Shown: positions 43,394 through 59,579, counted from the stretch's first letter. The stretch is DNA of 64,000 bases from Candidatus Anaeroferrophillacea bacterium (GCA_016933675.1 JAFGAM010000001.1:21181-85180); one strand, 5' to 3'. The notes: a model not told the origin generated them from the letters alone. Program-made: numbers and translations.

Positions 43394-44644
43394 TTACGGC
43401 GCCATCCCACCGGCGCCGGCATCGGTGCCGGTGCCCTTTCGACCGCCGAACGCCGCCGGCAGGTCCGTCCGCTCCCGCAGGACGGCGAAGGCGGCCAGCA
43501 ACAGGTCGATCTCGGCAGCCGTGTGGGCGGCGCTGAGGCTGATGCGCAGCAGGCTGCCGCCGCCGGGCGCCGCCGGCGGCAGCACCAGGTTGACGTAGAC
43601 CCCTTCCCGCAACAGGGCATGCCACATCCCGAGGGTGGTTTCGGCGTCGGGCAGGAAGACACCGACCACCGGCCCCGGCTCCGGCCCAAGGGCAAAACCC
43701 ATGTCCCGCAGCCCGGCATAGGTACGTGCAGCGTTTTCCCACAGCCGCCGGCGGAGTTCCGGGCGCGCGATCAGCTGCTGCAAGGCGGCGCGGGTGGCGG
43801 CGATGGTACCCGGCGATGGCGAGGCGGTATAGATGTACGGCCGGCTGGCGTAGCGCACCCATTCCAGCTCGGGGCGGGGGCTGACGCAGTAGCCGCCGAT
43901 GTTACCGAGGCTCTTGCTGAAGGTACCGACGATGAAATCCACCTGGTCCAACACCCCGGCTTCCTCGGCCCGCCCCCGTCCCCCCTCCCCCAGCACCCCC
44001 AGGGCGTGGGCCTCGTCCACCATCAGCAGCGCCCCGGCGGCGCGGGTGGCGGCGGTGATTTCGACCAGCGGCGCCCGGTCGCCCAGCATACTGTAGATCC
44101 CCTCGACGATGACCAGGGTATCGGCCACCCGCGAGCCCAGCCGGCGAAGGCGTTTGGCCAGATCGGCGGCATCGTTGTGGCGAAAGCGGATGATATCGGC
44201 GCCGCTCAGCCGGCAGCCGTCGTAGATGCTGGCATGGCAATCGGCATCGATAAGGGTGACATCTCCCGGCGCGGCGAGGGCGGCGATCATTCCCAGGTTG
44301 GCCAAAAAACCGGTGGAGAAAACGATTGCCGACCGCATGCCGTAAAAATCGGCCAGCTCCTCCTCCAGACGGCGGTGGCCGGCATAGCTACCGTTGGCCA
44401 TGCGCGAACCGGTGGTGCCGGTACCCGCCTCCTCCAGCGCCCGGCAGCCGGCGGCAATGCACCCGGCATCGAAGGTCAGCCCGAGGTAGTTGTTGGTACC
44501 CGCCAGCAGCACCGGCCGGCCGTTCATAACCCCGCGGGTGGGGGATTCGAGGCGCTCGAAGGTGGTGGAGAAAGGATCGATCCCGGCAGCGGTGATGGCC
44601 GCACGGGCGCGGCCGACGGTTTCGAGCTTGGCGAAGAGTCCCAT
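43394..44644 (-). CDS. spt: Serine palmitoyltransferase-like alpha-oxoamine synthase (PLP-dependent)
   Basis: GTFSKSLGNIGGY (the PLP lysine context typical of Spt) and LLAGTNNYLGLTFD are present. The N-terminal region resembles Sphingomonas SPT as I recall it. An ATG lies at 44644, and the ORF track uses a TTG at 44653. Confidence 0.8.
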   Translation of the reverse strand: MGLFAKLETVGRARAAITAAGIDPFSTTFERLESPTRGVMNGRPVLLAGTNNYLGLTFDAGCIAAGCRALEEAGTGTTGSRMANGSYAGHRRLEEELADFYGMRSAIVFSTGFLANLGMIAALAAPGDVTLIDADCHASIYDGCRLSGADIIRFRHNDAADLAKRLRRLGSRVADTLVIVEGIYSMLGDRAPLVEITAATRAAGALLMVDEAHALGVLGEGGRGRAEEAGVLDQVDFIVGTFSKSLGNIGGYCVSPRPELEWVRYASRPYIYTASPSPGTIAATRAALQQLIARPELRRRLWENAARTYAGLRDMGFALGPEPGPVVGVFLPDAETTLGMWHALLREGVYVNLVLPPAAPGGGSLLRISLSAAHTAAEIDLLLAAFAVLRERTDLPAAFGGRKGTGTDAGAGGMAP

Positions 44645-44649
44645 ACGCG

Positions 44650-44898
44650 TCAATCTCCCAGCAGTTCGGCAAGACAGGCGGTCAGCTCCCGCACCGTGCG
44701 GATGTCCGCCAGCCGGTTGAGGGGAATGGAGATGTCATACACCTCCTCGAGGGCGTCGACGATTTCCATCACCTTGAGTGAATCGACCGCCAGGTCAGCG
44801 ATCAGATCGGTGGTTTCGGCAATCGCTTCCCGGGTTCCGGTCACGGCGGCGAGAACACCGCGGACGGTTTCAAAAAGGTCGGCACGGTTGTCAGTCAT
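44650..44898 (-). CDS. Acyl carrier protein (dedicated, sphingolipid-type)
   Basis: It is 82 aa with the phosphopantetheine-site motif LAVDSLKVMEIV. It lies directly upstream of spt. Confidence 0.85.
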   Translation of the reverse strand: MTDNRADLFETVRGVLAAVTGTREAIAETTDLIADLAVDSLKVMEIVDALEEVYDISIPLNRLADIRTVRELTACLAELLGD

Positions 44899-44954
44899 AA
44901 TGAACGTATCCTCGATGGCCTCCGTAACACCCCCATCGCCTTCGCGGCGCAGCC

Positions 44955-45028
44955 GGCGAAATCCGGAACCGTTAGGGTGCCATCCATTTTTGCCGCATGT
45001 GCCGGCAGTGGTTACGGTTCCATCAACC
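44955..45028 (+). repeat. Two adjacent intergenic repeat family members (fused form plus 3' box form)
   Basis: They read GGCGAAATCCGGAACCGTTAGGGTGCCATCC and CCGGCAGTGGTTACGGTTCCATCAACC. They lie in the gap upstream of acp, antisense to it. Confidence 0.85.
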
Positions 45029-45078
45029 GTGGAAGGTGATGCCCGCACCCGGTTGCCCCCGGCCGGCAACCGCCGGAT

Positions 45079-46101
45079 TCATGAAACATCTCCGGGGATC
45101 GTCCCGAAGCGGCGGCCGCAGTCATCACCCGCCATCAGCCGCAGGCCGTCGAGCAGCCGGATGCGCGGCTCCCAGCCGCAGGCCGCCCGCAGTTCCTGAT
45201 GGCCGCAGACCCAGTCGGGATGATACAGTTCCCGGACCTTGCCGGCGGTCAGCATGGGCCGGCAACCGACGACCAACCGGGCACGGGCGGTGTTGATGCC
45301 GGCCGCCAGTCGCACCACCCGGCGGGGAACATTCAGCCGCAGCACCGGCCGGCGGCGGAAATCCACGCCGCAGCGACGGATATCCTCCCATGCATACCCG
45401 CCGGGGCGGCCGTCGTCAAGGGTAAAGGTGCGGCCCTCGTCGCGTCCCCGGCCATACTCCAGCCAAGCCCGGACCGCCGCCGCGAGGTCACTGACATGCA
45501 ACAGGGAAAGCCGGGCGGCGGCGCCGCCCGGAGCGAACAGAACGCCGCGGGCCAGCCACCGGAGCAACGGTCGGAGTTCACGGTCACCGGGGCCATAGAC
45601 CGCCGGCGGGCGCAAGATGGTGTAGGGGAGATCGGCGAATTCGGTTTCCAGCACCAGTTCGCCGCCGCGCTTGCTGGCGGCGTAGGGAGACAGATGCGGT
45701 TCGCGGGCGGCAAGGGAGGAGATATGGAGCAGCCGGGGACGTTTTACCGGCGGCAGGGAGTGGATAGCCGCCGCCAGTCGCCGGACGCCGTTCTCGTTGA
45801 CCTCCCGGAAATCGTCCGGGGTCAGGCCGCGGGTCGCACCGGCGCAGTGGACCACCATGCGGCAACCGCGGACCAGCCGGACCAGCGCCGCCGCGTCACC
45901 CAGGGTTCCGTTGAGCCAGGCGACGCCGGGCCGATCCTGCCGGCGACCGGCCTTCGCGGGCCGCACCAGAGCCCGCACCGGAAAGCCGCCGCCGGTCAAC
46001 TGCCGAACCACCTCGCCGCCGATAAAACCGGTGGCACCGGTGACGGCGACCGGTTCTTCAGCCTTCGCGGCGAGTCCGGGGATCGTCGCCACCATCACCA
46101 T
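45079..46101 (-). CDS. NAD(P)-dependent epimerase/dehydratase-family reductase (ceramide reductase CerR-like candidate)
   Basis: It has the Rossmann motif VTGATGFIGG and the catalytic motif YAASK. The start is uncertain and overlaps the end of the upstream ligase by about 44 nt. Confidence 0.75.
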   Translation of the reverse strand: MVMVATIPGLAAKAEEPVAVTGATGFIGGEVVRQLTGGGFPVRALVRPAKAGRRQDRPGVAWLNGTLGDAAALVRLVRGCRMVVHCAGATRGLTPDDFREVNENGVRRLAAAIHSLPPVKRPRLLHISSLAAREPHLSPYAASKRGGELVLETEFADLPYTILRPPAVYGPGDRELRPLLRWLARGVLFAPGGAAARLSLLHVSDLAAAVRAWLEYGRGRDEGRTFTLDDGRPGGYAWEDIRRCGVDFRRRPVLRLNVPRRVVRLAAGINTARARLVVGCRPMLTAGKVRELYHPDWVCGHQELRAACGWEPRIRLLDGLRLMAGDDCGRRFGTIPGDVS

Positions 46102-47878
46102 GGCGCGAGGCGCCCGCCGCCGCGGGGTCACCCATGACGGCAGCATCAAAATCCGGATTGCGGCGGAGGAAATCCCGCCGGGCGGTGGTCCGGGAAAGCT
46201 TGCCGGAGGATGTCTGGGGCAGGGTATGGGGCGGCACCAGATCGACGTAGCAGTCAAGCCCGAAGGCCTCGCGCATCAGGCCCCGCAGCCGGTCGATAAA
46301 CCGCAGGCGCTCGTCCTGATCACCCATCCGGGCCTGCACCACCAGCACCACGATCTCCCCCCCGGCGGCATCGACGGAGAAGGCGGCAACATCGCGCATG
46401 CGGATCCCGGGCAGGGTCTCGGCCAGTTCCTCAAGATCCTGGGGCCAGATATTCCGCCCATTGACGATGATGAGATCCTTCTCCCGGCCGGTGATCACCA
46501 GGGTACCTTCGGCAAGGTAGGCAAGGTCACCGGTATTGAGCCAGCCGTCCCCGGGCAGGGCGGCGGCGGTGGCACCGAAGTCGTCAAAATAGCCGTCCAT
46601 GACGCTGGCACCGCGGACATGCAGGATGCCGCAGCGGCGTTCGGGCAGGGTATTGCCGGCCTCGTCGCGGATGGCCACTTCGATGCCGGGAAGGGGCGGG
46701 CCGCAACGGACGAATTCACGGCTCTCGCCGATGACCGCCGCATCCCGCGGCACCGGCACCGACGCCTGCTCCGCCACCAGCCGGGCGGAGGAAACACATT
46801 CGCTTTTGAGCCCGGCGGACAGGGGGGAAAAACTCACTGCCAGGGTGGCCTCGGCCAGGCCGTAGGCGGCGACGAAGGCCTTGGCGGAGAACCCGGCGGG
46901 GGCGAACCGGTCGGCGAAGCCGCGCAGAACATCGGTACGGATGGGCTCGGCACCGACGCCGGCGATGCGCCAGGAAGACAGATCACAGCCGGCGATCTCG
47001 GCCTCCCGCACCCGTCGGGTACACAGGGCATAGCCGAAGGTGGGACTGAAGGAGATGGTGCCCTGGTTGCGCGACACGAGTTCCGGCCAGCAGCGCGGCC
47101 GCAGGGCGAAATCGCGGGTCTTGAGATAATCCACCGAGCGCTGGGTGGCGAGCGGCGCGAGGAGGAAGCCAACAAGACCCATATCGTGATAGAACGGCAG
47201 CCAGGAGATCGAGCGATCATCTTCCCCCACCCGGAGCCCGTAGCGGCCGATGGCCGCAAGATTCGCCATCAGCGCCCGCTGGGAGATCATCGCCCCGCGG
47301 GGCGCGCTGGTACTGCCGGAGGTATACTGGATATAGGCCGGTTCGTCGGCGGCCAGGGGGTCGGGATCTCCCGCCTCCGGCAGGCGGCACAGATCGCCGG
47401 CGGTGCCGACAAAGGTGAGCTCGAGGCCCGCGGCCGCCTCGGCGAGGAACGGCAGAAACTCCGCCGGCGACAGCGCCGCCGCCGCCCGCGATGCCCGCAG
47501 CATGGCGTGCAACTGCCGCACCAGCCGCTGATGACCGCCCAGATGGATGGCCGCGGCCAAGGGCACCGGGACCAGCCCGGCAAACTGGCAGGCAAAAAAC
47601 AGCCGGACGAAATCCGGCTCGGTATCGGCCACCAGGGCGATGTGGGAGCCACGGGGCATCCCGAGGGCGGCAAGACGGCGGGCCAGCACCCGAACGTCAT
47701 CCCCCAGGACGGCATAGGGCAGCACCGCGTCAAGCCCACCGCGGCGGGAATAGAAGCTCATCCCGGTAGCCCCCCCGGCGGCATATTCCAGGGCGTCGGC
47801 CAGCGAGGTGAAATCACCCTGCCGCAACGGTATCCGGCTCGATGTTGGCGCAGGCAATAACATGTTGATTAAACACAT
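46058..47878 (-). CDS. Fatty acyl-AMP ligase / acyl-ACP synthetase (FAAL-type adenylate-forming enzyme)
   Basis: It has AYIQYTSGSTSAPRG and WLPFYHDMGL motifs. Confidence 0.85.
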   Translation of the reverse strand: MCLINMLLPAPTSSRIPLRQGDFTSLADALEYAAGGATGMSFYSRRGGLDAVLPYAVLGDDVRVLARRLAALGMPRGSHIALVADTEPDFVRLFFACQFAGLVPVPLAAAIHLGGHQRLVRQLHAMLRASRAAAALSPAEFLPFLAEAAAGLELTFVGTAGDLCRLPEAGDPDPLAADEPAYIQYTSGSTSAPRGAMISQRALMANLAAIGRYGLRVGEDDRSISWLPFYHDMGLVGFLLAPLATQRSVDYLKTRDFALRPRCWPELVSRNQGTISFSPTFGYALCTRRVREAEIAGCDLSSWRIAGVGAEPIRTDVLRGFADRFAPAGFSAKAFVAAYGLAEATLAVSFSPLSAGLKSECVSSARLVAEQASVPVPRDAAVIGESREFVRCGPPLPGIEVAIRDEAGNTLPERRCGILHVRGASVMDGYFDDFGATAAALPGDGWLNTGDLAYLAEGTLVITGREKDLIIVNGRNIWPQDLEELAETLPGIRMRDVAAFSVDAAGGEIVVLVVQARMGDQDERLRFIDRLRGLMREAFGLDCYVDLVPPHTLPQTSSGKLSRTTARRDFLRRNPDFDAAVMGDPAAAGASRHGDGGDDPRTRREG

Positions 47879-47893
47879 ATATTATAGTAGTAA
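47865..47893 (+). promoter_or_regulatory. Predicted promoter for the GNAT gene (-35 TTGATT, 17-nt spacer, -10 TAGTAA) in a 60-nt AT-rich divergent region
   Basis: The hexamer spacing is correct. The SD AAGG lies 6 nt before the ATG run. Confidence 0.45.
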
Positions 47894-47940
47894 AGGGATA
47901 GCGCACTTTTAGCACAAAAAAATGTTTTAGACAAGGTTTT

Positions 47941-49092
47941 ATGATGATGATGATGATGAACAAAACCCTGCACATCACCCCGGTACGCACCCGCCGCCAG
48001 CGGGAACAATTCATCCGCCTGCCGTGGCGGTTGTACCACGGCGATTCCTGCTGGGTTCCGCCGCTACTGGTCGAGCGACGCCGGCATCTGGATCCGCGGC
48101 ACAACCCCTTTTTCCACCACGCCGAGGTCGACACCTGGCTCGCCACTGCCGCCGGCCTCCCGGTGGGGCGGATCAGCGCCCAAGTGGATCACCTGCACCA
48201 GGAACGCTACGGCGACGGCGCAGGGTTCTTCGGCCATATCGACGCCGTCGACGACCCGGCGGTGTTCGCCGCCCTGCTCGAGACCGCCGGCGACTGGCTG
48301 CGGGAACGGGGCATGCGCACCGTCCGCGGCCCGTTCAACTTTTCCATCAACCAGGAATGCGGCCTGCTGGTGGACGGCTTCGACTCCCCGCCGATGGTTA
48401 TGATGGGCCATGCGCCATCCTGGTATGCCGCCCGGCTGGAGGAACAGGGTTTAGCCAAAGCCATGGACATGCTGGCCTGGCGGGTGAACGCCGACTTCAC
48501 CCCGCCGGCCTTCCTCACCCGCATGGCGCCGCGGCTGGCCGGGCGCGTACGCCTGCGTCCGCTGGACAACCGCCGCTTCGACGCGGAACTGGACCTCATC
48601 CGGGAGATCTTCGAAGACGCCTGGCAGGACAACTGGGGCTTCGTCCCCTTCACCGCCGAGGAACTCGATGAGCTAGGCCGCAACCTGAAGTTCCTCGTCC
48701 CCCCCGAGCTGGTCCGGTTCGCCGAGGTAGACGGTGAGCCGGCGGCAATGATGGTGGTGTTTCCCAACGTCAACGAGGCCATCCGGGATCTCGACGGCCG
48801 ACTGCTGCCACTGGGCTGGCTGCGCCTGCTGTGGCGGCTGAAGGTATCCGGCGTCAAAACCATTCGGGTACCGCTGATGGGCGTCCGCCGCCGCCTCCAA
48901 AACAGCCGGCTAGGAGCGGCCCTCGCCCTGATGCTGATCACCTCGTTACAGGAAGAAAGCCTGCGGCGTGGCGTCGAGACCGCGGAGATGTCGTGGATCC
49001 TCGAAAACAACGAGGGCATGAGCCACATCAACGAAGCCATCGGCGGCGTGCCCTACAAGCGCTACCGGATCTACGCCAAGGAACTGCCATGA
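47941..49092 (+). CDS. Large GNAT-fold N-acyltransferase (bacterial ceramide synthase bCerS-like candidate)
   Basis: It is 383 aa with the acyl-CoA-site-like motif RRRLQNSRLGAAL. It is divergent from the spt-acp-reductase-ligase operon. It starts with six consecutive ATG codons. Confidence 0.6.
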   Translation: MMMMMMNKTLHITPVRTRRQREQFIRLPWRLYHGDSCWVPPLLVERRRHLDPRHNPFFHHAEVDTWLATAAGLPVGRISAQVDHLHQERYGDGAGFFGHIDAVDDPAVFAALLETAGDWLRERGMRTVRGPFNFSINQECGLLVDGFDSPPMVMMGHAPSWYAARLEEQGLAKAMDMLAWRVNADFTPPAFLTRMAPRLAGRVRLRPLDNRRFDAELDLIREIFEDAWQDNWGFVPFTAEELDELGRNLKFLVPPELVRFAEVDGEPAAMMVVFPNVNEAIRDLDGRLLPLGWLRLLWRLKVSGVKTIRVPLMGVRRRLQNSRLGAALALMLITSLQEESLRRGVETAEMSWILENNEGMSHINEAIGGVPYKRYRIYAKELP

Positions 49093-49904
49093 ATTCTGCA
49101 ACAATCTTTCGCGCCGTGGTCCTGGCGGGTGACCGCGGTCCCGGCGACCCGGTGGCCCGGGAGGCCGGAACTTCATGCAAGGCCCTGGTCCCCGTCGCCG
49201 GCCGGCCGATGATTTTCCATGTTCTCGACACCCTCCACCGCGCCGCCGCCATCGCCCCCGCACCCCTGGTCTCGGGCAGCGGCGAGTGTTTGCTCGGGCA
49301 GAGCCCGGAACTGCTCCGGCGGCTGGCCGCCGGCACCGTCACCTGGCGGGAGAACGAATCATCTCCAAGCCGCAGCGCCCTGGCGGCATTCACCCAGCTG
49401 CAACAGGAGTACGGGAACGCCCCCGTCCTGCTGACCACCGCCGACCACCCGCTGCTGACCCCGGCGATGGTGGATCATTTCTGCAACCGGGCCGCGGACA
49501 GTGGTCTCGACATCGCCGCCGGAGTGGTACCGGCGACACTGGTTGCCGGGGCCTTCCCGGAAAGCCGGCGCACCGTCACCCGGCTCCGCGACGGCGGCAT
49601 CTGCGGCGCCAACCTTTTCGCCCTGCTGACCCCTCGGGCGGGGCAGGCGCTCTCTTACTGGCGCCGGGTGGAAGCGCAGCGCAAGAGCCCGCTGAAGATC
49701 GTCCGCACCGTGGGGTTCTTCACCCTGCTCAGCTACCTTTTCGGCCGCCTGACCCTGGCCGCCGGCTGCCGGCGGCTGTCGGCAGCCATGGGGGTACGGG
49801 GCGGCACGGTGGAGATCCCCTTCCCCGAGGCGGCCGTCGATGTCGACACCCCCGCCCACCGGCAACAGGCGGAGGAGATTATCGCCCGGCGCCACTCACC
49901 CTGA
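49089..49904 (+). CDS. MobA-like NTP-transferase family protein
   Basis: It has AVVLAGDRG...KALVPVAGRPM, a nucleotidyltransferase N-terminal motif. There is an ATGA overlap with the GNAT gene. Confidence 0.65.
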   Translation: MNSATIFRAVVLAGDRGPGDPVAREAGTSCKALVPVAGRPMIFHVLDTLHRAAAIAPAPLVSGSGECLLGQSPELLRRLAAGTVTWRENESSPSRSALAAFTQLQQEYGNAPVLLTTADHPLLTPAMVDHFCNRAADSGLDIAAGVVPATLVAGAFPESRRTVTRLRDGGICGANLFALLTPRAGQALSYWRRVEAQRKSPLKIVRTVGFFTLLSYLFGRLTLAAGCRRLSAAMGVRGGTVEIPFPEAAVDVDTPAHRQQAEEIIARRHSP

Positions 49905-50077
49905 CCGGGCATGCACCGGAACCATCCGAGAAAGAAGCACGGGCGACCGGCCGGTCGCCCCAACACCCACCGCCAATAAGCGCCGGGCCGACCGGTCCCG
50001 GTGCCGACAGCGCGATTGCGGCGTTGCGCCCGCGGCGCTGAAATCGCCAAACACGCCCCTGATGGGACTCAAACCCG

Positions 50078-51298
50078 TCATTTTCCGTGCGGCACGGTTT
50101 CAAGGAAGCGACCGTGTTCGTTCAGTTCCTCCAGCCGGCAACTCCACACCAGCCGGCCGTCATGAACGGTGATATCGGGACAACTGTCGCACATGTCCTG
50201 GCGACCGTCGGCCTCGAAGTTCACCGGCTGGATGATCATGAAGGACTGGATATAAGCCGCCTGCAACAGCGCCGCGGGCCGGTCCCGGATCTCCCGGCCG
50301 ATGGCGGCGAGAATCCGGCGGCTGCCGCGGTCGAAAAGGGAACCGGCCAGGGCCTGCAGACGGCCGAGCCGGGTGGCCCGGGGTCTGGCATAGGACAGGT
50401 AGCGGCCGGCAAACAGGTGATTGCCGGTCTGGATGACCTCCATCATCCGCGGCGACATGTAGCCCATCACCTTGCCGTTGTATACCGTCCGACTGGCCAG
50501 CAGCCACTTGAATGAATCGGGGCGGGCGGTACCGTTGAGGTAAGCCGCGGGCTCGTAGGCCGGGTCGGCGACGCGGATCTGCGCCACCGCGTCGGCGGCG
50601 TAGAGGGTATCCTCGCCGCCCCACTCGGGCTCCTCGTAAAGGCTGGTCATTTCCATCCGCTTCCCGCCGGCAAAGTAGTCGAAATCGCCGGCAAGGGAAG
50701 GGGAACGAAAGAGGATGAAAACCATGGTCTGTACCAGCCGGGCGTGTTCCCCGGCCCAGCGGACCATGGCGGGAATCTCGTGCAGATTGTGGTCGCTGAT
50801 GGTGGCGTTGAAGGAGCAGGCGATGTTGCCGGCTTGCCCCAGCATGCGGGCGAAACGCAGCCGGAGATCGTTCAGTCCGGTCTCGGTTTCGACCTGGAAG
50901 TCGGGCCGCTTCTGCGAGGTGTCGATGTGGAAGGTAAAACCATAGACCCCGGCCCGCTTCAGCTCCATCAGGAGCGGATAGTCGAGGGCGACGCCGTTGG
51001 TGTTGACGATGGGCTTCCAGCCCAGGTCACGCACCCGCCGCACCAGTTCGACGATGTGCGGGTACACCAGCGGGTCGCCGCCGGCGATGCTCATGCAGTC
51101 ACTGCGCCGCAGCCGTTTGAAGGTCTCCAGTTCCGCCTGCACCTCGTCGAGGCTCTTGTGTCGCGGGTTGACCTGGCTACGGTAGCAGCCCTTGCAGTGA
51201 AGATTGCAGTAGGTGGTGGGCTCGAGCCACGAGATGCCGTTGTCGGCGTAGTTCCACGGCAGGCGGTAATAGTCCAGGTGATTGAGGGGAGCGGTCAT
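50078..51298 (-). CDS. Radical SAM enzyme of unknown specificity
   Basis: It has the CNLHCKGC cluster motif (CxxxCxxC), the GGDPL glycine motif, and a C-terminal Cys-rich tail CDSCPD...SC. The start is MTAPLNHLDYY. Confidence 0.8.
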   Translation of the reverse strand: MTAPLNHLDYYRLPWNYADNGISWLEPTTYCNLHCKGCYRSQVNPRHKSLDEVQAELETFKRLRRSDCMSIAGGDPLVYPHIVELVRRVRDLGWKPIVNTNGVALDYPLLMELKRAGVYGFTFHIDTSQKRPDFQVETETGLNDLRLRFARMLGQAGNIACSFNATISDHNLHEIPAMVRWAGEHARLVQTMVFILFRSPSLAGDFDYFAGGKRMEMTSLYEEPEWGGEDTLYAADAVAQIRVADPAYEPAAYLNGTARPDSFKWLLASRTVYNGKVMGYMSPRMMEVIQTGNHLFAGRYLSYARPRATRLGRLQALAGSLFDRGSRRILAAIGREIRDRPAALLQAAYIQSFMIIQPVNFEADGRQDMCDSCPDITVHDGRLVWSCRLEELNEHGRFLETVPHGK

Positions 51299-51476
51299 CG
51301 TAACCTCTGAAATCGTTGTCAACACATCGACCACCAGGCGCCGCTTGAGGGCCAATGAGCGGCTACCGGCACCAGGCGACATCGTTGGTCAGGGGGAAAG
51401 CGAACGCTCGGGAAACCCCGGCATGCCCCCCGGAAACGGAGGTCCGTCCACCCCGCCGAGCATCCGTAATGCTTGA

Positions 51477-52250
51477 TCAGACCGAAGAAACCGCCGCCGC
51501 GAGGTCGGCGGCACACGGTATTTCCCCGCACGATTCACCGACTACCCGTGCGGCGGCGGCGATATCGGCGGGACAGTCGACCTCGGCCCAGGGATGGCCG
51601 GCGATGCAGCAGGTCCGGACGGCGTGGTCGCGGGCCAGTTCGTCGATCACCGACAGGTACCAGCGCCGGAGGCCGGCGGGATGGCGCATCACCGCCTCGA
51701 CGGAGCGCCGGAACAGCGCCGCCCCGTGACCGCGGAACAGCAGCAGACCGATGGACTCGGCCCCCACAACGTCGGCAGCCAAATCCTTGCCGATGCGCAG
51801 CAGCCGGTCACCTTCCACCGCGACCTTCATGTCATCGTCGTCGTAGACCGCCTTGCGATCAGTGGTCACGGTGACATCCCGGGGTTCTCCGGCCAGCAGG
51901 GTCTCCAGCAGCGGTGCCCGGAAGATGGTATCCCCGTTCAGCAGGATGAAATCGCCGTCCATCTCGCCGCGCACCACCCAGCAGGTCGCCAGGTTGTCGG
52001 AAACCAGGTAAAAGGGATTGAAGACGGTTTGCACCGGCTCTCCGGACCAGGCCACCGCCAGGTAATCCTCCACCAGGTCGGCGGCGTAGCCGGTAACCAC
52101 GCGGATCTCCTCGACACCGCAGCCAAGCAGGGCTTCGATCTGCCAATCGATCAGCGGCCGGCCCGCGATCGGGATCATACATTTGGGACGTTTTGCGGTC
52201 AGCGGCAGCAGCCGCTTCCCCTGGCCGGCACTGAGAATGATCGCCTTCAC
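51477..52250 (-). CDS. Sugar/alcohol-phosphate nucleotidyltransferase (LicC / IPCT-like)
   Basis: It has the AIILSAGQGKRLLPLT...PKCMIPIAG signature. A GTG start at 52250 is preceded by the SD GAAGG, and the ORF track extends it to 52292. Confidence 0.8.
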   Translation of the reverse strand: MKAIILSAGQGKRLLPLTAKRPKCMIPIAGRPLIDWQIEALLGCGVEEIRVVTGYAADLVEDYLAVAWSGEPVQTVFNPFYLVSDNLATCWVVRGEMDGDFILLNGDTIFRAPLLETLLAGEPRDVTVTTDRKAVYDDDDMKVAVEGDRLLRIGKDLAADVVGAESIGLLLFRGHGAALFRRSVEAVMRHPAGLRRWYLSVIDELARDHAVRTCCIAGHPWAEVDCPADIAAAARVVGESCGEIPCAADLAAAVSSV

Positions 52251-52451
52251 GCTCTGCCTTCCCCCCTCACCCGGCCCGGGAGGCCGTGGCACCGCCCCGC
52301 GGGCATCCGCTCCCGGTCATCCGTAGCCGCTCTTGAGCCAAAAAGAAACCAATGATTACAAAAATTTTTATAACAAACGCGCCTTCTTCACGGCATTCCA
52401 CGGCAGTTCAGTCGACACATTTCAGGATACGCTCATTCCCCGGTCAGGAGG

Positions 52452-52542
52452 CACCGCAAATCCGGTGGAGCGCCTATGATGGACCACCCCTCCGGGATCA
52501 TCCCTTTTCAGGGTATTTTGGCAATTGTTACGGTTTCATTGC
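52452..52542 (+). repeat. Intergenic repeat family member, composite form (5' box, variable hairpin, 3' box)
   Basis: It reads CACCGCAAATCCGGTG, then a hairpin GATGAT/ATCATC, then TTGGCAATTGTTACGGTTTCATTGC. It lies in the 517-nt region upstream of lptF. Confidence 0.75.
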
Positions 52543-52809
52543 TCCATCATGAAAATCGTGTTTTGCGCGCGATAGTATGATATATTGTCCCCGCTGTCAA
52601 GCCAGGAGCACGGCAGCGGCCGGCAAAAGGCAAAGAAACACCCGTTGGCCGCCGCCGAACAGCTTATCGAAACATGGATCAAGGGGTCCGGCAGGCCGGG
52701 CACCCGCATGGTGCCCGGAAAAAACCTTTCCGGGCAATGGATTGACGGCTTCGCCACCGCCGCCGAATATCCGCGGCATCACTCATACGTTCGCATGTCA
52801 CAACATACC

Positions 52810-53928
52810 ATGGTCCCGTCCATCCTCGAACGCTATACAATGCGTGAAATCGGCCGCCCCATCGTCGGCGTCGCCGCCGTGCTGGTGCTGATCTTCGCCG
52901 GCTACTGCACCGTCCTCTTTCTCGACGACGCGGTCAACGGCCTGCTTTCCCCCGCTGCCGTGGGTATCCTCATCGCCCTGAAGGTCTGCATCGCCCTGGA
53001 CGTTCTGCTGCCCGTATCCCTTTTTCTGGCAGTGATCCTCGCCCTGGGCCGCTTCCACGCCGACCGCGAACTGTTGGCCATGGAGGCCGCCGGGGCGGGG
53101 TATTGGCCGGTGGTAAAGGCGGTACTGGTACTCGGGCTGCTGCTGGCGGTGATCGTCGGCCTGGTTTCCGGCTTCGTGCGCCCCCGGGCCTACGAACAGA
53201 TGTACCGGCTCAAGGCCCGGGGGAAGAACGAGCTGAACCTCGCCCACATCGAGGCCCGACGCTTCTACGAACTGGGCGCCGGACGGGACGGGGTATTCTT
53301 CGCCGAGCGGGTGGACGACCGCGACGGACTGGTTCACGGCGTCCATGTCTGGCTGCAGGAAGGATTCCGCCGTCAGGTCATCCAGGCCCAGAGCGCCGTT
53401 CAGGGAGTCGACCCGGATACCGGCGACCAGGTGATCGAATTCCACGACGGTTATCACTACGATATGGACGATGCCGCCGGCAGCTGTCAGGTGGTGTCTT
53501 TCCGGCGGCTGCGCCGCCGCATCACCCCGGCGCTGGCGCTGGGCGGCGCCGCGGCGAAACTGAAGGCGCTGTCCACCGTCCGGCTGGCGCTTTCCGGGCG
53601 GCCGGAGGAAATCGCCGAGGTGCAGTGGCGCCGGTCCACCGGGGTCACCACCCTGCTGCTCGCCCTGCTCGGCATTCCGTTGAGCCGGACCGTACCCCGG
53701 CGCGGCAAGCATGCCCGGGTAACCACCGCCTTCGTGATCTTTTTCATCTATTACAACGTGCAGCTGATGGCGCGCTCCTGGGTCGAGCAGCAGGTCGTGC
53801 CCGCTTTTCCGGGCCTCTGGTGGGTACCGTTCCTGCTCGCCTGTCTGACCGTTTCCTGGCTGGCTCCCCGGCTGCGGGCGGCATCCGCGCCGCGGCCGAC
53901 CGGGAGCGACGCCGGAGGGCGCGGATGA
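52810..53928 (+). CDS. lptF: LPS export ABC transporter permease LptF (YjgP/YjgQ family)
   Basis: It has the N-terminus SILERYTMREIGRPIVG, six TM segments and a periplasmic insert. The start was chosen at MVPSILERY. Confidence 0.8.
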   Translation: MVPSILERYTMREIGRPIVGVAAVLVLIFAGYCTVLFLDDAVNGLLSPAAVGILIALKVCIALDVLLPVSLFLAVILALGRFHADRELLAMEAAGAGYWPVVKAVLVLGLLLAVIVGLVSGFVRPRAYEQMYRLKARGKNELNLAHIEARRFYELGAGRDGVFFAERVDDRDGLVHGVHVWLQEGFRRQVIQAQSAVQGVDPDTGDQVIEFHDGYHYDMDDAAGSCQVVSFRRLRRRITPALALGGAAAKLKALSTVRLALSGRPEEIAEVQWRRSTGVTTLLLALLGIPLSRTVPRRGKHARVTTAFVIFFIYYNVQLMARSWVEQQVVPAFPGLWWVPFLLACLTVSWLAPRLRAASAPRPTGSDAGGRG

Positions 53929-54998
53929 ACCTCATCGCCCGCCACATCGCCCGCCGGTTTTTCTTCTGGTGGCTGCTTTGCGGCCTGCTGCTGGTGGGTC
54001 TGTTCTCGCTCTTCGATCTGGCGGCGCAGATCGACGATCTGGAGGCCGGCTACCGCCTGGCGGACGCCCTGCTGTACGTCGCCCTGAAGGTTCCCGGACG
54101 CTTCATCGAAACCGCCCCGCCGGCCATCCTGCTGGCGGGAGTGGCCACTCTGGGCATCATGGCCGAGCACCAGGAGCTGCTGGCATTACAGGCCGCCGGG
54201 ATCGGCACCGCCCGGATCGCGTGGCAGATCGTCAAACCGGCACTGGCGGTGCTGCTGCTGCTCATGCTCGCCGGGCAGTTTATCGCCCCGCCCATGGAAC
54301 AACGGGCGTGGGTCATCCGTGAACAGGGGCGGTCGCAAACCGGGACGTTTTTACCCAACACCGGGTTCTGGGTCCGCCGGGGACGGCAATTCATCAATCT
54401 TCGCCCCGACCGCACCGGCCATGCCGCCGGCCGCGCCATCGAAATCTACCGCTTCGCCGGTGACGGCCGTCTGGAATCCCTGATCCAGGCACCCGAGGTC
54501 TCGCTGGACAACGACAACGAATGGATCCTGCACCGGGCCCGGACCAGGCACTTCGACGGCGGCAACGGCGGAATTATCCGGGCAAGCGACCCCGAAATTC
54601 GGATTCAACCGCCGCTGACCGGCACCGAAACCCGGATATTCAACCTGCCGGCCCGGACCCTGTCGTTCAGTGAGCTGCACGCCCTCATCGGGCGGTTGCG
54701 GGAGCGCCGACAGTATGCCGGCACGTTCCGGACGGTATTCTGGCAGAAGCTCACCCAAGCACCGCTCGCCCTGGCGATGCTGGCGCTGGCATTTCCCTTC
54801 ACCCTCGGGCGGCCGCGGCAGATGGGACTGGGCTGGCGGATCATGGTGGGGGCGGTAACCGGGGTGCTGGGCTATTTCATCCATCAGGTTTTCGTCAACC
54901 TCGGTCTGCTCTGGTCATGGCCGGCGCCGCTCACGGCCATCGTCCCCATCGGGGTTTTCCTTCTCGCCGCACCGCTGCTGCGGCCGCGTCGCGGCTGA
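53925..54998 (+). CDS. lptG: LPS export ABC transporter permease LptG (YjgP/YjgQ family)
   Basis: It starts MNLIARHIARRF and has the same topology as lptF. There is an ATGA overlap with lptF. Confidence 0.8.
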   Translation: MNLIARHIARRFFFWWLLCGLLLVGLFSLFDLAAQIDDLEAGYRLADALLYVALKVPGRFIETAPPAILLAGVATLGIMAEHQELLALQAAGIGTARIAWQIVKPALAVLLLLMLAGQFIAPPMEQRAWVIREQGRSQTGTFLPNTGFWVRRGRQFINLRPDRTGHAAGRAIEIYRFAGDGRLESLIQAPEVSLDNDNEWILHRARTRHFDGGNGGIIRASDPEIRIQPPLTGTETRIFNLPARTLSFSELHALIGRLRERRQYAGTFRTVFWQKLTQAPLALAMLALAFPFTLGRPRQMGLGWRIMVGAVTGVLGYFIHQVFVNLGLLWSWPAPLTAIVPIGVFLLAAPLLRPRRG

Positions 54999-55976
54999 CC
55001 CATGGCGAGGCAGCAGACGGATGGCGGGGGGGATCGCGATAAATCCGCCGGCATGGCAAACGAAACGATACACTGTCTCCTCCAGCTCCCAGGCGGTCGG
55101 CAGCGGGCGCAGCCGATAGCGGGCGATTACCGCCCGGTACGCCCCCGCCCGGCCGCCGGCAGTAGCGGCGGCCAGGCCGCGGACCGGCACCGGACCGGCG
55201 GCCGTATCCAGTTCCCGCTGCATAAGACGATGGGCATGACCGTGCAATACCAGTTCGACGCCGCGGCGGCGCAAAACCGCAAGCAGCTGCACCCCGTCCG
55301 CCAGGCGCTTGCGAGGGCTGACGACATCGGGAAACGGCGGATGATGGAGCAGCACGACACGAAATTTCCCCGCCTCGGCGCCGGCGGCCAGGGCGGTATC
55401 GAGGTCCGTCAGCTGGCGACGGCCCAACCGGCCGAGCGCCAGCAGGGGATTGCCGCCGGCCACGGCCGAAGACAGGCCGATGAACATCACCGGGCCCCGG
55501 ATGCGGACGACAGGAAAGGGATCGACCCCACCGGCAGCCGCGACCGGCGGCGACCGGCGGGCGTCGGAACGGCAGTACGGCAGCCATGCCGGCAGCCCCC
55601 GGACCAGGGATCGGCGGCCGGTGGCATCGTGGTTGCCGGGAATCACGGTAATATCGCCGGGATCACCCAGTCGTGCGAGCCAGGCGGCCGCCTCAAGGTA
55701 TTCCGCCCGCGTCCCGAGACTGGTGAGATCGCCGGTAACGACCGCGTGATCCGGCCGCCGGCGATGCAGCTCCCGCTCCACGGCGGTGAGAACCGCGGTA
55801 TCGTACACGTGGCGACGGCTTAGGTACCAGGCCGGCAGCCCGAGAACCGCTTTGAGGCTCAACTCGTACCATCGCGGTCGGGGCCGGGTGAAATGCGGAT
55901 CGGAAAGGTGGACGAAGGTAAACCCGGGGTTGTCCTCCGCCGCCTGATCCGTTACATGGTGCATTGGCTGATCCAT
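54915..55976 (-). CDS. Calcineurin-like metallophosphoesterase
   Basis: It has the motifs HLSDPH, TGDLT, GNHD, LLHHPP and HGHAH. Its 3' end overlaps lptG convergently by 84 nt. Confidence 0.8.
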   Translation of the reverse strand: MDQPMHHVTDQAAEDNPGFTFVHLSDPHFTRPRPRWYELSLKAVLGLPAWYLSRRHVYDTAVLTAVERELHRRRPDHAVVTGDLTSLGTRAEYLEAAAWLARLGDPGDITVIPGNHDATGRRSLVRGLPAWLPYCRSDARRSPPVAAAGGVDPFPVVRIRGPVMFIGLSSAVAGGNPLLALGRLGRRQLTDLDTALAAGAEAGKFRVVLLHHPPFPDVVSPRKRLADGVQLLAVLRRRGVELVLHGHAHRLMQRELDTAAGPVPVRGLAAATAGGRAGAYRAVIARYRLRPLPTAWELEETVYRFVCHAGGFIAIPPAIRLLPRHGSAATRPQQRCGEKENPDGDDGRERRRP

Positions 55977-56090
55977 AACCCGGGGGAACCCGGCAGTCTC
56001 CGGTATGGTTTTTGCCGAACCATCGGCAGCAGGCCGGAATCGGTGCCGACAGCTCGATTTCGGCATTGTCATCGCCTCGCTGAAACGGCC

Positions 56091-56245
56091 AATTACCGTA
56101 ATTCCACGGGTCCGCCCCGTCCCCCGGCTGCGGCGCGCCGAGAATCCGGAGCGGTTACCGTACCATCACGTTTTACCGCACTTCGGCGTGGTTACGGTTC
56201 CATCAACCTTGCCCGCTTGCGAGCGCGGTTACGGTTCCATAAACC
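56091..56245 (+). repeat. Array of four intergenic repeat family 3' boxes (56091, 56153, 56189, 56227), the second with a 5' box at 56136
   Basis: The boxes read AATTACCGTAATTCCAC, GGTTACCGTACCATCAC, TGGTTACGGTTCCATCAACC and GGTTACGGTTCCATAAACC. The last three are 37 nt apart. The array ends 70 nt before the operon ATG. Confidence 0.85.
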
Positions 56246-56315
56246 CTGACGGACGTGCCAGCCGACGGCGGCACGCCGGGCGGGACGTATCCCCGACCAA
56301 CCGCAGGAAAAGGAC

Positions 56316-57515
56316 ATGATCATGACCCTGAACATCCACCTGTTTTCCGACCCGCCGATAACCCTCTGGGGGCTGTCGAGCCGCGAGCGGCTGTCCCGGA
56401 CGCTGGGTAAAAAGCGGAACATCAACTGGATCTACCGCCTCGATGCCGCCCCACCGGCGGCTGACATGCTCCTGCTGGCGGGCGATTACCTCTACGACCC
56501 CCGGATACCTGAGGCCCTCGTCCGGGCGCCCGACACCATTCTCTACGACGCCCCGCCGGCGGCCGGCGGCCGCCCGACCGCCGCCCACATCTCCGCCGCG
56601 CGACGATCCGAAGTGCTGGGCCACCTGCAGAACCCGGCGACCATACCCGCTCCGGACGGGGTAACATGCCTCACCCCCGCCGAACTGGTCTCCGGATTCC
56701 AGCACCGGCTGCGCAAGATCCAGCCCCCCTATGTCCTGCCGATCACGGTGGAAAACCGCAGACGGCTGGAGAAACTGCTCTTCACCGGCTCCTACAAGGG
56801 GGTAACCGATCTGGTGACCAAGTGGCTCTGGCCGTTGCCGGCCCGCCACGTGACCCGCTGGTGCGCGACGCAAAACATCACCCCCAACCAGGTCACCAGC
56901 ATGAGCCTGGCCATGGTAATCATCGCCAGCCTGTGCTTCTACCACGGCCTCCTCGCCGCCGGCCTGGCGGCGGCCTGGCTGATGACCTTCCTGGACACGG
57001 TGGACGGCAAACTGGCCCGGGTGACGGTAAACTCCAGCACCTTCGGGCATCTCTTCGACCACATCATCGACCTCGTTTCGCCGCCGCTGTGGTACATATT
57101 CTGGGGCATGGGGGTGGAACACCGGCATCCGGACGCCTTCGGCGGCTATCTGGCGCCGCTTCTCTGGCTGCTCATCGGCGGCTACGTCGCCGGCCGGCTG
57201 GTAGAACTGGTGTTCAAACGGTGGCTGGAACCGACGGGAATCTTCTGCTGGCGGCCGCTGGACTCGGTCTTCCGCCTGATCACCGGACGCCGCAACCCCA
57301 ACCTCCTGCTGCTCACCGGCAGCCTCATCGCCGGCCGACCGGATATCGGCCTCCTGCTGGTGGTTATCTGGACCGTCATCTCCAGCATATTTCTCGTCAT
57401 CCGGCTGGAAGTCGGCCGGCGAGAGAAACACGTCGCCGGGGGACTGCGCTCCTGGCTGCAGGACGATACGGTACCGGCATCCCCGCTCATCCGCGGCTGG
57501 TTTACGGACCGATGA
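56316..57515 (+). CDS. CDP-alcohol phosphatidyltransferase family protein with an N-terminal cytoplasmic extension of about 170 aa
   Basis: It has the full signature DTVDGKLAR-x8-G-x3-D-x3-D plus TM helices. The N-terminal domain is unassigned. Confidence 0.85.
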   Translation: MIMTLNIHLFSDPPITLWGLSSRERLSRTLGKKRNINWIYRLDAAPPAADMLLLAGDYLYDPRIPEALVRAPDTILYDAPPAAGGRPTAAHISAARRSEVLGHLQNPATIPAPDGVTCLTPAELVSGFQHRLRKIQPPYVLPITVENRRRLEKLLFTGSYKGVTDLVTKWLWPLPARHVTRWCATQNITPNQVTSMSLAMVIIASLCFYHGLLAAGLAAAWLMTFLDTVDGKLARVTVNSSTFGHLFDHIIDLVSPPLWYIFWGMGVEHRHPDAFGGYLAPLLWLLIGGYVAGRLVELVFKRWLEPTGIFCWRPLDSVFRLITGRRNPNLLLLTGSLIAGRPDIGLLLVVIWTVISSIFLVIRLEVGRREKHVAGGLRSWLQDDTVPASPLIRGWFTDR

Positions 57516-58648
57516 GCGACAACCCGTGCCCGACGTATATTCCGGTTCACCGCCCGGCGAGCCGTTTCCCGGCAACCGTACCGGGGGATGAGTCCCCGGG
57601 GACCGCGCCGCATTCCCTGCATCAACCCTTTACGCCACCGGACACCGCCGCGGGGCCTCCGGCATCACCGGCGGTCTTCCGGCAGGTGGGCGTGCTGACC
57701 AATCCGCGCAGCGGCGGCAATCGCCGTAACGACGGCCGCGTGGCCGGGCTGCTGGCCGCACGGCTGCCCGCCGCCCGGCATGTTCTCGCCCGCACCGCGG
57801 GGGAGATCGAGCACGCCCTGGACGAGTTCCGCCGCGCCGGCATCGACCTGCTGGTGATCAACGGCGGCGACGGCACGGTTCAGGCGGCCCTCACCCACAT
57901 CTACGCCGTCGCGGCACCGGGTTCGTGGCGGCCGGACCTGGCCCTGCTCCGCGCCGGGACCGCCAGTATGCTGGCCCGGGACGCCGGACTTGCCGGCAGT
58001 CCGCCGGCAGCGGCGGCGCAACTGGCGGCGGCACTCACGGAAGGAGGAAAGCCCGGCCGCCTGCACGTGGTTGAACGGCATGTCCTGCGGGTGGAACACC
58101 ACCCCGAAAAACCGCCCCAATGCGGCATGTTCTTCGGCTGCGGTGCCGTCTGCCGGGGCATCGACCTGTGCCACGGCAGCCTCAACCGCGCGGGCATCCG
58201 CGGGGAACTGATGCCCGGCCTGATCATGCTGCGCCAACTTATAGACCTGGCCCGCGGCCGCCCCGACCGCCTGGGCCCGGTGCGGGCCGGGGGCATGATC
58301 GACGCCCGGCCGCTACCGGCATCATCCTGGCTGCTGATCGTCGCCGCCACCCTGCGACGGCTGGTGCTCGGCATGTACCCGTTCTGGGGGACACCGGAAG
58401 CGCCGCTGCACCTCACCGCGATCGAGACCCGGGCGCCGCACCTGCTGCGGCGGGCGGGCCGCATCATGCGTGGTCGGCCAGACGTTTCCATGACGCCGGC
58501 ACACGGTTTCCACAGTGCCGCCGGCAAACGGATGGAACTGGATTTTACCGGCGACTTCACCCTCGACGGGGAGATATACACCGCCGCCGGATCGCTGACC
58601 GCCACTACGACGGGACCGGCGCGGTTCCTGGTCTTCGAACATGGTTGA
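57512..58648 (+). CDS. Diacylglycerol-kinase-family lipid kinase (ceramide/sphingosine kinase-like candidate)
   Basis: It has the motifs LTNPRSGG and LLVINGGDGTVQ. There is an ATGA overlap with the upstream gene. Confidence 0.8.
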   Translation: MSDNPCPTYIPVHRPASRFPATVPGDESPGTAPHSLHQPFTPPDTAAGPPASPAVFRQVGVLTNPRSGGNRRNDGRVAGLLAARLPAARHVLARTAGEIEHALDEFRRAGIDLLVINGGDGTVQAALTHIYAVAAPGSWRPDLALLRAGTASMLARDAGLAGSPPAAAAQLAAALTEGGKPGRLHVVERHVLRVEHHPEKPPQCGMFFGCGAVCRGIDLCHGSLNRAGIRGELMPGLIMLRQLIDLARGRPDRLGPVRAGGMIDARPLPASSWLLIVAATLRRLVLGMYPFWGTPEAPLHLTAIETRAPHLLRRAGRIMRGRPDVSMTPAHGFHSAAGKRMELDFTGDFTLDGEIYTAAGSLTATTTGPARFLVFEHG

Positions 58649-59579
58649 TACGTTGCTCACCCTGGTCCGGCGGGAAGCCGGCAAACCGGTTCCGGCTGCG
58701 GTCCAGACCATCGCCGAAGCCGCCCGGAAACGTCACCGCACCGCGGTCACCGCGGTCATCCATTACGGTTCCTGCCTGCGGCGACCGGAATCCGTCGCCG
58801 CGGGCATCATCGATCTCTACCTGCTGGTCGACAGCTACCGCGCCGCCGGCCTGGGACCGGTATCTGCCGGCGCCTGCCGGCTGCTGCCGCCCAACGTCTA
58901 CTACCTTGAGACGGAACACGACGGGGTTGCCGTCCGCACCAAATACGCCCTCATGCACCGGGACGACTTCTTCCGCGGCACCCGACACTGGTTCCATGCC
59001 TATATTTGGGCCCGCTTCGCCCAGCCCTGCCGGCTGGTGTGGGCAGCGGACGAGGCAGAGCGTAACGTGGTTGCCGCCGCCCTGGCGGAAGCCGTGCAGC
59101 GGTTCATTCGGGAAGTGCAGCCGCTCATGAAGGGACCGTTCAGCGCCCGGGAGCTGTGGCTCGCCGGCTTCGGTCTGAGCTACGGCACCGAGCTGCGTTC
59201 GGAAACCACCGACCGCGGTGCGGAACTCTACGCCGCCGCCGCCGACTACTACGCCGGTGCCGCCCGGGCGGTGCTCGGGCCGCCGCTGCCGGCGGCAGCC
59301 GGCGAAGAACCCCGCCATACCGTGCCGGCACGCGGGCCAATCGCCGCCAGCCGGCGGCGGATCGCCTGGTTCCTGCGCCGCCGGCAGAGCAAAGTCCTCT
59401 CGGTACTGCGCCTTCTGAAGGCGGCTTTCACCTTCACCGACGGCCCCGCCTACCTGATATGGAAGATTCGCCGCCACAATCCGGATATCATCGCCGCCGA
59501 CGACCCGCGCCTGCAACGACCGGTCACGGCCCTGGCGGTACTTATCTGGCGACTCGTGCGGCGGCGTCCCCGCTGCTGA
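58641..59579 (+). CDS. Tam41/Mmp37-like nucleotidyltransferase (CDP-diacylglycerol-synthase-type) candidate
   Basis: Three blocks align by eye to yeast Tam41. HYGSCLRR aligns to GYGSGVF, IIDLYLLV to QIDIVLGV, and NVYYLE...RTKYALMHRDDF...WARFAQPCRLV to GVYFNP...VKYGVVS...LAGRLQKPVKIL. SYGTELR aligns to SYAGDIR. There is an 8-nt overlap with the kinase gene. Confidence 0.55.
   Translation: MVDTLLTLVRREAGKPVPAAVQTIAEAARKRHRTAVTAVIHYGSCLRRPESVAAGIIDLYLLVDSYRAAGLGPVSAGACRLLPPNVYYLETEHDGVAVRTKYALMHRDDFFRGTRHWFHAYIWARFAQPCRLVWAADEAERNVVAAALAEAVQRFIREVQPLMKGPFSARELWLAGFGLSYGTELRSETTDRGAELYAAAADYYAGAARAVLGPPLPAAAGEEPRHTVPARGPIAASRRRIAWFLRRRQSKVLSVLRLLKAAFTFTDGPAYLIWKIRRHNPDIIAADDPRLQRPVTALAVLIWRLVRRRPRC

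Follow-up and report, generated by a model that had tools for sequence, protein, structure and literature searches.

The five genes and the spacers between them

A 64,000-nucleotide stretch of the genome of Candidatus Anaeroferrophillacea bacterium (GCA_016933675.1, JAFGAM010000001.1:21181-85180), hereafter called the window, contains at positions 43394-49092 five genes that make up, in a new host, an authentic and unremarkable version of the gene set with which bacteria are known to make ceramide, the backbone of sphingolipids. Four of the genes lie on the minus strand: aasR (46058-47878), encoding a fatty acyl-AMP ligase (FAAL)-type acyl-AcpR synthetase of 606 amino acids (aa) with the motifs YTSGSTSAPRG (aa 185-195) and WLPFYHDMGL (aa 226-235); cerR or epi (45079-46101), encoding an NAD(P)H-dependent 3-keto reductase of approximately 340 aa that belongs to the extended short-chain dehydrogenases/reductases (SDR) and has the motifs GATGFIGG (aa 22-29) and YAASK (aa 140-144); acpR (44650-44898), encoding a dedicated acyl carrier protein (ACP) of 82 aa with the motif DSL (aa 39-41) and the phosphopantetheine serine S40; and spt (43394-44653), encoding a serine palmitoyltransferase of 419 aa with the motif GTFSKS (aa 243-248, window positions 43910-43927), in which K247 is the pyridoxal phosphate (PLP) lysine. 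The fifth gene, on the plus strand, encodes an N-acyltransferase of the bCerS/Aca/YghO family (bcerS, 47941-49092; 383 aa) with a predicted tandem-GNAT fold. An earlier reading of the same DNA, here called the original prediction, had proposed these five open reading frames and quoted these motifs; open reading frame listing and translation confirmed all of the former at their coordinates and located all of the latter.

The divergent spacer between aasR and bcerS (47879-47940, no strand assigned) is exactly 62 nucleotides (nt) long and has a G+C content of 29%, versus about 65-66% in its surroundings and in the window. The length and A+T-richness that the original prediction attributed to a shared promoter region are therefore correct, and the spacer presumably holds promoters for both transcription units; the promoter role is presumed, because a consensus scan gave only two sigma-70-like sites, weak and both on the plus strand, and no match for the minus-strand operon. 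A terminator scan found none after spt, and the two terminator-like matches that it did find were both within coding sequence and fewer than shuffled sequences predict. The four minus-strand genes probably form one operon, and the acyltransferase gene probably heads a divergent one. The stop codon of acpR and the start codon of spt overlap by 4 nt, and cerR, the start of which is uncertain within 46092-46101, overlaps the 3' end of aasR by approximately 40 nt. This otherwise tight packing is broken by a 180-nt spacer between acpR and cerR (44899-45078), which carries one copy of an intergenic repeat (44959-45028, no strand assigned) that is dispersed through the genome and lies outside the pathway. 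Queried against the genome with blastn-short, the spacer gave dozens of matches of 20-64 nt on many contigs, indicating that the repeat is genome-wide and degenerate; a search for the exact two-box pattern returned a single copy, at 44961-44993 in this spacer.

Family membership and orthology of the encoded proteins

The alpha-oxoamine synthase (AOS) of the cluster is Spt and not BioF, Kbl or CqsA, as had been predicted. It passes the NCBIfam equivalog model for serine palmitoyltransferase (NF047599; 595.5 bits, cut-off 500), whereas it scores under the cut-offs of the models for BioF (323 of 426 bits), Kbl (298 of 460), ALAS (214 of 339) and CqsA (185 of 428). Among PDB sequences its top matches are the serine palmitoyltransferases (SPTs) of Sphingomonas wittichii (2x8u, 409 bits) and S. 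paucimobilis (2jg2, 400 bits), followed at a distance by a Sphingobacterium SPT (270 bits), KBL (216), BioF (approximately 180), cysteate acyltransferase (177) and CqsA (106). The alignment with the Sphingomonas enzymes covers the full length from residue 6, so that the SPT-type N terminus, noticed earlier as a resemblance, is present. H140, D213, H216, K247 and R370 of Spt align with the catalytic residues H159, D231, H234, K265 and R390 of 2jg2. A maximum-likelihood tree, with E. coli BioF, E. coli Kbl and a BioF/Kbl-like paralogue of the same genome (a second AOS on contig C20) as references and with CqsA and ALAS left outside it, groups Spt with E. coli Spt and with twelve Spts linked to such clusters, in a clade that has 100/99 support and is parted from all three references by a long branch.

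Three of the other proteins were assigned by domain and model scores. AcpR contains PF00550 (E 3.5e-13) and reaches the cut-off of none of the NCBIfam models for housekeeping AcpP, which bears out the prediction of a dedicated ACP. AasR passes the NCBIfam model for fatty acyl-AMP ligase (NF006624; 753.7 bits, cut-off 600), as expected of a FAAL-type enzyme. CerR matches the NAD-dependent epimerase/dehydratase family (PF01370, E 2.4e-22) and has the Rossmann motif GATGFIGG and a catalytic pair, Y140 and K144, separated by three residues. An upstream extension of the CerR frame (...RRRAPRAMVMVATIPGLAAKA) resembles a twin-arginine motif, and such a Tat signal would fit the periplasmic location reported for CerR of Caulobacter, but it was rejected because this stretch overlaps the 3' end of the FAAL gene and 18 CerR homologues at other loci have equally short N termini without the motif.

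Homologues of the 383-aa protein number more than 8000; some of them are named "protein YghO" or "GNAT superfamily N-acetyltransferase", and some have PF00583 recorded. Its AlphaFold2 model, built from an alignment of 22 sequences, has a pLDDT of 89.9 and a pTM of 0.87, and Foldseek placed tandem GNATs at the top of the matches to it (E 3e-15 to 5e-12; scores normalized to the query, TMq, of 0.54-0.60), among them a tandem GNAT of the clavulanate pathway (2wpw), a glucosamine N-acetyltransferase (5kf1), MAB_4324 (7q3a) and mycothiol synthase MshD. The predicted structure thus confidently assigns a tandem-GNAT fold, and the homology supports classification as a YghO/bCerS-family N-acyltransferase. 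The protein, originally described as a divergent GNAT, is better termed a typical member of the YghO/bCerS family. The gene opens with six consecutive ATG codons (47941-47958, MMMMMM); one contig from a sediment metatranscriptome has (ATG)5 at this position, a 3-nt deletion that amounts to an in-frame polymorphism of repeat length.

The five genes have orthologs in E. coli. Of 5426 complete E. coli genomes searched by blastn with the spt gene, 3395 have a gene annotated as "spt: serine palmitoyltransferase", in a locus that consists of the divergent gene yghO followed by genes for a fatty acyl-AMP ligase, an NAD-dependent epimerase, an ACP, spt, and then paralogues of lptG and lptF. Over their full lengths, the proteins of the window are 49% (YghO, 376 of 383 aa), 45% (AasR, 562 aa), 41-43% (SDR), 34% (ACP) and 54% (Spt) identical to those of E. 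coli; published identities between the Caulobacter and E. coli proteins are 34-53% (PMC9386255). When the E. coli proteins were searched against the genome of the window, all five window genes ranked first: YghO had a sole match, and the best and next-best matches were separated by 441 versus 95 bits for AasR, 206 versus 42 for the SDR, 48 versus 34 for AcpR and 414 versus 192 for Spt. In the reverse search against the E. coli chromosome, the YghO-like protein matched only yghO, and the SDR matched the spt-linked epimerase; across the SDR comparisons the best match scored 206-210 bits and the next one 41.6 bits or less. Reciprocity was examined both ways for these two proteins and in the E. 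coli-to-window direction for the other three. The GNAT and SDR assignments, which in the original prediction were founded on context and generic motifs, have thereby become reciprocal best matches of the E. coli proteins.

The E. coli proteins bring experimental background to the comparison, since Spt, AcpR and AasR of E. coli B have been characterized biochemically (PMC9386255). In that study of Caulobacter and E. coli BL21 (Padilla-Gomez et al. 2022), the ACP was found to be a phosphopantetheinylated carrier, AcpR; the ligase was found to be a specific acyl-AcpR synthetase, AasR, which acylates AcpR and not coenzyme A (CoA) or AcpP; and Spt, which in E. coli makes 3-oxo-sphinganine from serine, preferred acyl-AcpR. 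The same study lists yghO (ECD_02850) as the ortholog of Caulobacter Aca (CC_1154), with 44% identity and an E value of 1e-107, and ECD_02852 as the ortholog of Epi (CC_1164), with 34% identity (Fig. 9 and Table S2 for both). In the nomenclature of the Klein laboratory, CC_1154 is bCerS and CC_1164 is CerR.

Predicted dihydroceramide synthesis and alternative readings

With a probability of about 0.9, the region encodes the five-protein dihydroceramide route known from Caulobacter and E. coli B. The direct observations behind this reading are the families to which the proteins belong, their reciprocal orthology with the E. coli proteins, conserved synteny, catalytic motifs, a predicted fold and near-identical contigs in two metatranscriptome runs, which may include DNA. 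In the proposed route, AasR would adenylate a free long-chain fatty acid and load it onto the phosphopantetheine arm of AcpR at Ser40; Spt, with PLP on Lys247, would condense L-serine with acyl-AcpR to give 3-ketodihydrosphingosine and CO2; the YghO/bCerS tandem-GNAT enzyme would attach a second acyl chain by an amide link; and CerR/Epi would use NAD(P)H to reduce the ketone at C3. Published models disagree on which of the last two reactions comes first: N-acylation precedes reduction according to Klein and follows it according to Geiger. The ceramide would then probably be phosphorylated, given a head group derived from a CDP-alcohol, and exported by the adjacent LptF2/LptG2 and ABC proteins (49089-62204). 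All of this chemistry is extrapolated, and so are the lengths of the chains, the donor from which bCerS takes its acyl group, the sequence of N-acylation and reduction, and the regulation.

The grouping of the five genes is not due to chance, because the same order and orientation recur in E. coli, in other loci and in relatives. One scan of named genome contigs yielded 24 loci with a YghO-like protein, which were compared with the window by tblastn of the window proteins. A layout with yghO divergent from FAAL, SDR, ACP and spt genes was present in at least 14 loci of Thermodesulfobacteriota, Verrucomicrobiota and Pseudomonadota, the carriers being Geobacter, Desulfobacteraceae, other "delta" metagenome-assembled genomes (MAGs), one Verrucomicrobiota MAG, Wenzhouxiangellaceae and an unclassified Pseudomonadota MAG. 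Spt scored above the cut-off in five of seven genomes of the same family and in three of 20 genomes of the sister family, and those relatives with long enough contigs have the five-gene layout of the window. Among the seven genomes of Rhodobacteria surveyed in PMC9386255, Caulobacter and E. coli BL21 alone had the five genes in a cluster, and co-localization of genes for Spt, bCerS and CerR has already been reported across approximately 40 phyla, including Desulfobacterota (PMC11334938). The fully clustered five-gene layout is widespread, including outside the Proteobacteria.

Two further patterns were seen among the loci. Compact SDR-Spt-YghO operons that lack ACP and FAAL genes are present in three genomes of the same phylum (G027, G036 and G038; loci L053, L052 and L051), with 28-42% identity to the proteins of the window, and show that the phylum also has the ceramide gene set in another, simpler form. 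YghO and FAAL of the window are 57-66% identical to those of Geobacter and Thermodesulfobacteriota MAGs (L005-L009) versus 49-54% identical to those of their own family or order (L048-L049), and Spt is approximately equidistant (61-64%) from both groups, a hint that at least some of the cluster genes were exchanged horizontally.

DNA nearly identical to this stretch was found in sediment and freshwater metagenome runs, and in two sediment metatranscriptome runs that belong to the same study. Each of the five genes is covered in part, and the block downstream of bcerS for the most part, by metatranscriptome contigs of at least 99% identity. One of these contigs (47534-48050), the one with five ATG codons at the start of bcerS, crosses the divergent spacer from the interior of aasR into bcerS, and is either DNA in an RNA library or the product of overlapping divergent or antisense transcription. 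DNA carry-over being possible, the contigs lend weak support to expression of the cluster.

This contig is one of several observations that weigh against the dihydroceramide route. The 383-aa protein has no sequence match in Pfam, NCBIfam or the PDB, and the activity of bCerS has been demonstrated genetically, in Caulobacter only. The equation of the five genes with the Caulobacter set of Spt, ACP, ACP synthetase, CerR and bCerS, made in the original prediction, is supported and was borne out transitively, by the E. coli matches together with Table S2 of PMC9386255, so that the link is an indirect one; no Caulobacter locus was among the 24 loci that the one scan with the YghO-like protein retrieved from named contigs. 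Arg378 of S. paucimobilis SPT corresponds to Leu358 in Spt of the window (VNLVLPPAAP); E. coli Spt has the same leucine, and the role of Arg378 may be specific to a Sphingomonas subgroup. The linkage of Black Sea Desulfobacterota to 1-deoxyceramides (PMC11334938) makes the amino acid substrate less certain.

The last two observations lead to the best of the alternatives, that the favoured substrate of this Spt-like enzyme is alanine or glycine instead of serine and that the cluster makes 1-deoxy-sphingoid bases and 1-deoxyceramides. In the euxinic Black Sea such lipids have been attributed mainly to Desulfobacterota and/or Bacteroidota (PMC11334938), and the nearest named homologs of NadA of this genome, with 65-72% identity, belong to "Deltaproteobacteria bacterium" MAGs. 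The leucine in place of Arg378 would also fit, but E. coli Spt, which shares it, uses serine. Moreover, the DAGK-type kinase and CDP-alcohol transferase encoded nearby would require a C1 hydroxyl group for a phospho head group, and the cut-off of the Spt equivalog model is passed. We therefore regard a 1-deoxyceramide product as improbable.

Considerably less probable still is that the AOS serves some other pathway (sulfonolipid or capnine synthesis from cysteate, a CAI-1-type signal, biotin or threonine), with the ACP, FAAL, SDR and GNAT proteins dedicated to that product. The AOS fold and the quoted motifs are common to all of these enzymes, and cysteate-C-fatty acyltransferase, KBL, BioF and CqsA of the PDB all match Spt with E values below 1e-29; however, their scores fall far short of those of the Sphingomonas SPTs, every NCBIfam model other than that for Spt is under its cut-off, the genome has its separate BioF/Kbl-like paralogue on contig C20, and the cluster is syntenic with sphingolipid clusters that have been validated experimentally. 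Equally remote is the view that the organism has no use for the cluster, which would be a silent island, either newly acquired by transfer or in decay, for although it is patchy within the order (as the sister family illustrates), has YghO and FAAL closer to those of Geobacter and Thermodesulfobacteriota than to those of its own family, and has a dispersed repeat inside the operon, all of its open reading frames are intact with G+C contents at third codon positions (0.79-0.85) typical of the genome, most genomes of the same family possess it, and metatranscriptome contigs cover it.

The dihydroceramide route, as the preferred reading, adds one more uncultured anaerobic sediment lineage of "deltaproteobacterial" type to the predicted makers of ceramide and leaves the understanding of the pathway unchanged. 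Its value is in annotation: a 383-aa protein for which Pfam and NCBIfam offer no model can be named as a ceramide synthase of the bCerS/YghO family and the SDR can be named as CerR, while spt and the FAAL gene were already nameable by models of the NCBI itself.

The adjoining predicted head-group and export block

The stop codon of bcerS overlaps the start codon of the next gene (ATGA, 49089-49092), an arrangement for translational coupling. That gene (49089-49904, plus strand) encodes a MobA/CofC-like NTP transferase (PF12804, E 1.3e-14) and is a candidate counterpart of CC_1153. The pair is kept in at least 15 loci (L005-L016, L026-L027 and L048-L049) and is steadier than the adjacency of bcerS and spt, which suggests that N-acylation and head-group activation are functionally coupled. 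Beyond it are genes for a radical SAM protein of 434 aa (50078-51382, minus strand; PF04055, E 1.2e-18) and a sugar- or alcohol-phosphate nucleotidyltransferase (51477-52292, minus strand), which is assigned by PF12804, PF00483, NCBIfam and synteny and is a candidate counterpart of CC_1152. LptF (52810-53928, plus strand; TIGR04407, 275 bits) and LptG (53925-54998, plus strand; TIGR04408, 280 bits) come next, followed by a calcineurin-like phosphoesterase (54915-56072, minus strand; PF00149, E 2.3e-13) that is a candidate counterpart of CC_1158 and is kept in related clusters. An open reading frame on the opposite strand (orf273, 55002-55823, plus strand) was rejected as a gene because the antisense Metallophos gene is the one kept in those clusters.

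The block continues on the plus strand with a CDP-alcohol phosphatidyltransferase (56316-57515; PF01066, E 2.3e-10), a DAGK-type lipid kinase (57512-58648; PF00781, E 2.7e-12) and a weakly Tam41-like protein (58641-59579; PF09139, E 0.03), the genes for which overlap in an order that matches CC_1159-1160-1161 (cpgC-B-A) of Caulobacter. A gene for a TPR protein follows, and the last gene (60423-62204, minus strand) encodes an MsbA-like ABC exporter of 593 aa (PF00005 and PF00664), a candidate lipid flippase. Most genes of the block recur beside the backbone genes in related loci. In relatives of the same family or order (L046-L050, from genomes G001, G002, G005, G017 and G019), a homolog of the exporter with approximately 50% identity is encoded immediately after spt; the exporter gene of the window is 16 kb from spt, at the far end of the block.

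The LptF/LptG pair is a second copy, other LptF-like and LptG-like genes being located on contigs C132 and C67. A phylogenetic tree places LptF in a clade (97/94 support) with the spt-linked LptF2 proteins of E. coli and other clusters to the exclusion of housekeeping LptF, which is consistent with a predicted export bridge dedicated to sphingolipids; the placement of LptG was not resolved. The radical SAM protein has matches of 66-69% identity in clusters of Geobacter and Desulfobacteraceae only (L006 8681-9889; L009 4130-5332), and may modify the lipid. Most other clusters lack its gene, and descriptions of the E. coli and Caulobacter regions do not mention it. A bolder proposal, which we hold only tentatively and consider rather unlikely as a whole, is that ceramide synthesis, CDP-alcohol/kinase head-group formation, LptF2/LptG2-MsbA-like export and the orphan radical SAM gene together form a horizontally mobile sphingolipid "supercluster" of approximately 19 kb, with which the organism would make a chemically new outer-membrane phosphosphingolipid modified by the radical SAM enzyme. 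This head-group and export block with its orphan gene is a more interesting target than the backbone set.

Comparison with known systems

The gene order and orientation of the window are identical to those of yghO-aasR-epi-acpR-spt (ECD_02850-ECD_02854) in E. coli B and enterotoxigenic E. coli, and a pair of LptF/LptG paralogues adjoins the cluster in both; E. coli K-12 lacks the cluster. More than 15 MAG loci agree with the window in order and orientation as well. Two features distinguish the window: its Spt and AasR have C-terminal tails of roughly 25-35 aa that the E. coli proteins lack, and its cluster runs on into genes for nucleotidyltransferase, radical SAM, phosphoesterase, CDP-alcohol transferase, kinase and ABC proteins, whereas the E. 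coli cluster runs on into ytfJ-like, yghQ, yghS and yghT genes, the products of which had no matches in the genome of the window.

Comparison with SPTs of S. paucimobilis (2jg2) and S. wittichii (2x8u) reveals the PLP lysine, the catalytic histidine, aspartate and second histidine, and Arg390 in common, and differs in the replacement of Arg378 by Leu358; in Sphingomonadaceae, aasR and aca are scattered through the genome (PMC9386255). The compact cerR-spt-bcerS operons of other phyla share the three core enzymes, a triad that served as the marker in Stankeviciute et al. 2022 and Ding et al. 2024, whereas the dedicated ACP and FAAL are present only in the window.

Caulobacter crescentus possesses the same five functions (CC_1162-CC_1165 and CC_1154, or CCNA_01220-01223 and CCNA_01212), with its spt, acp, reductase and synthetase genes in the same order, but its acyltransferase gene is eight genes distant, whereas that of the window is adjacent and divergent. 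By analogy, the backbone genes may be the start of a region of approximately 19 kb (43394-62204) that mirrors CC_1152-CC_1168, which has been described as encoding two nucleotidyltransferases, LptF2/LptG2, a phosphoesterase, a CDP-alcohol transferase, the ceramide kinase CC_1160, CC_1161 and a candidate flippase (PMC11324152). All of its domain types, taken on the Caulobacter side from this description and with a weak match for the Tam41-like protein, are also encoded at 49089-62204 of the window; the radical SAM gene has no reported counterpart in Caulobacter or E. coli.

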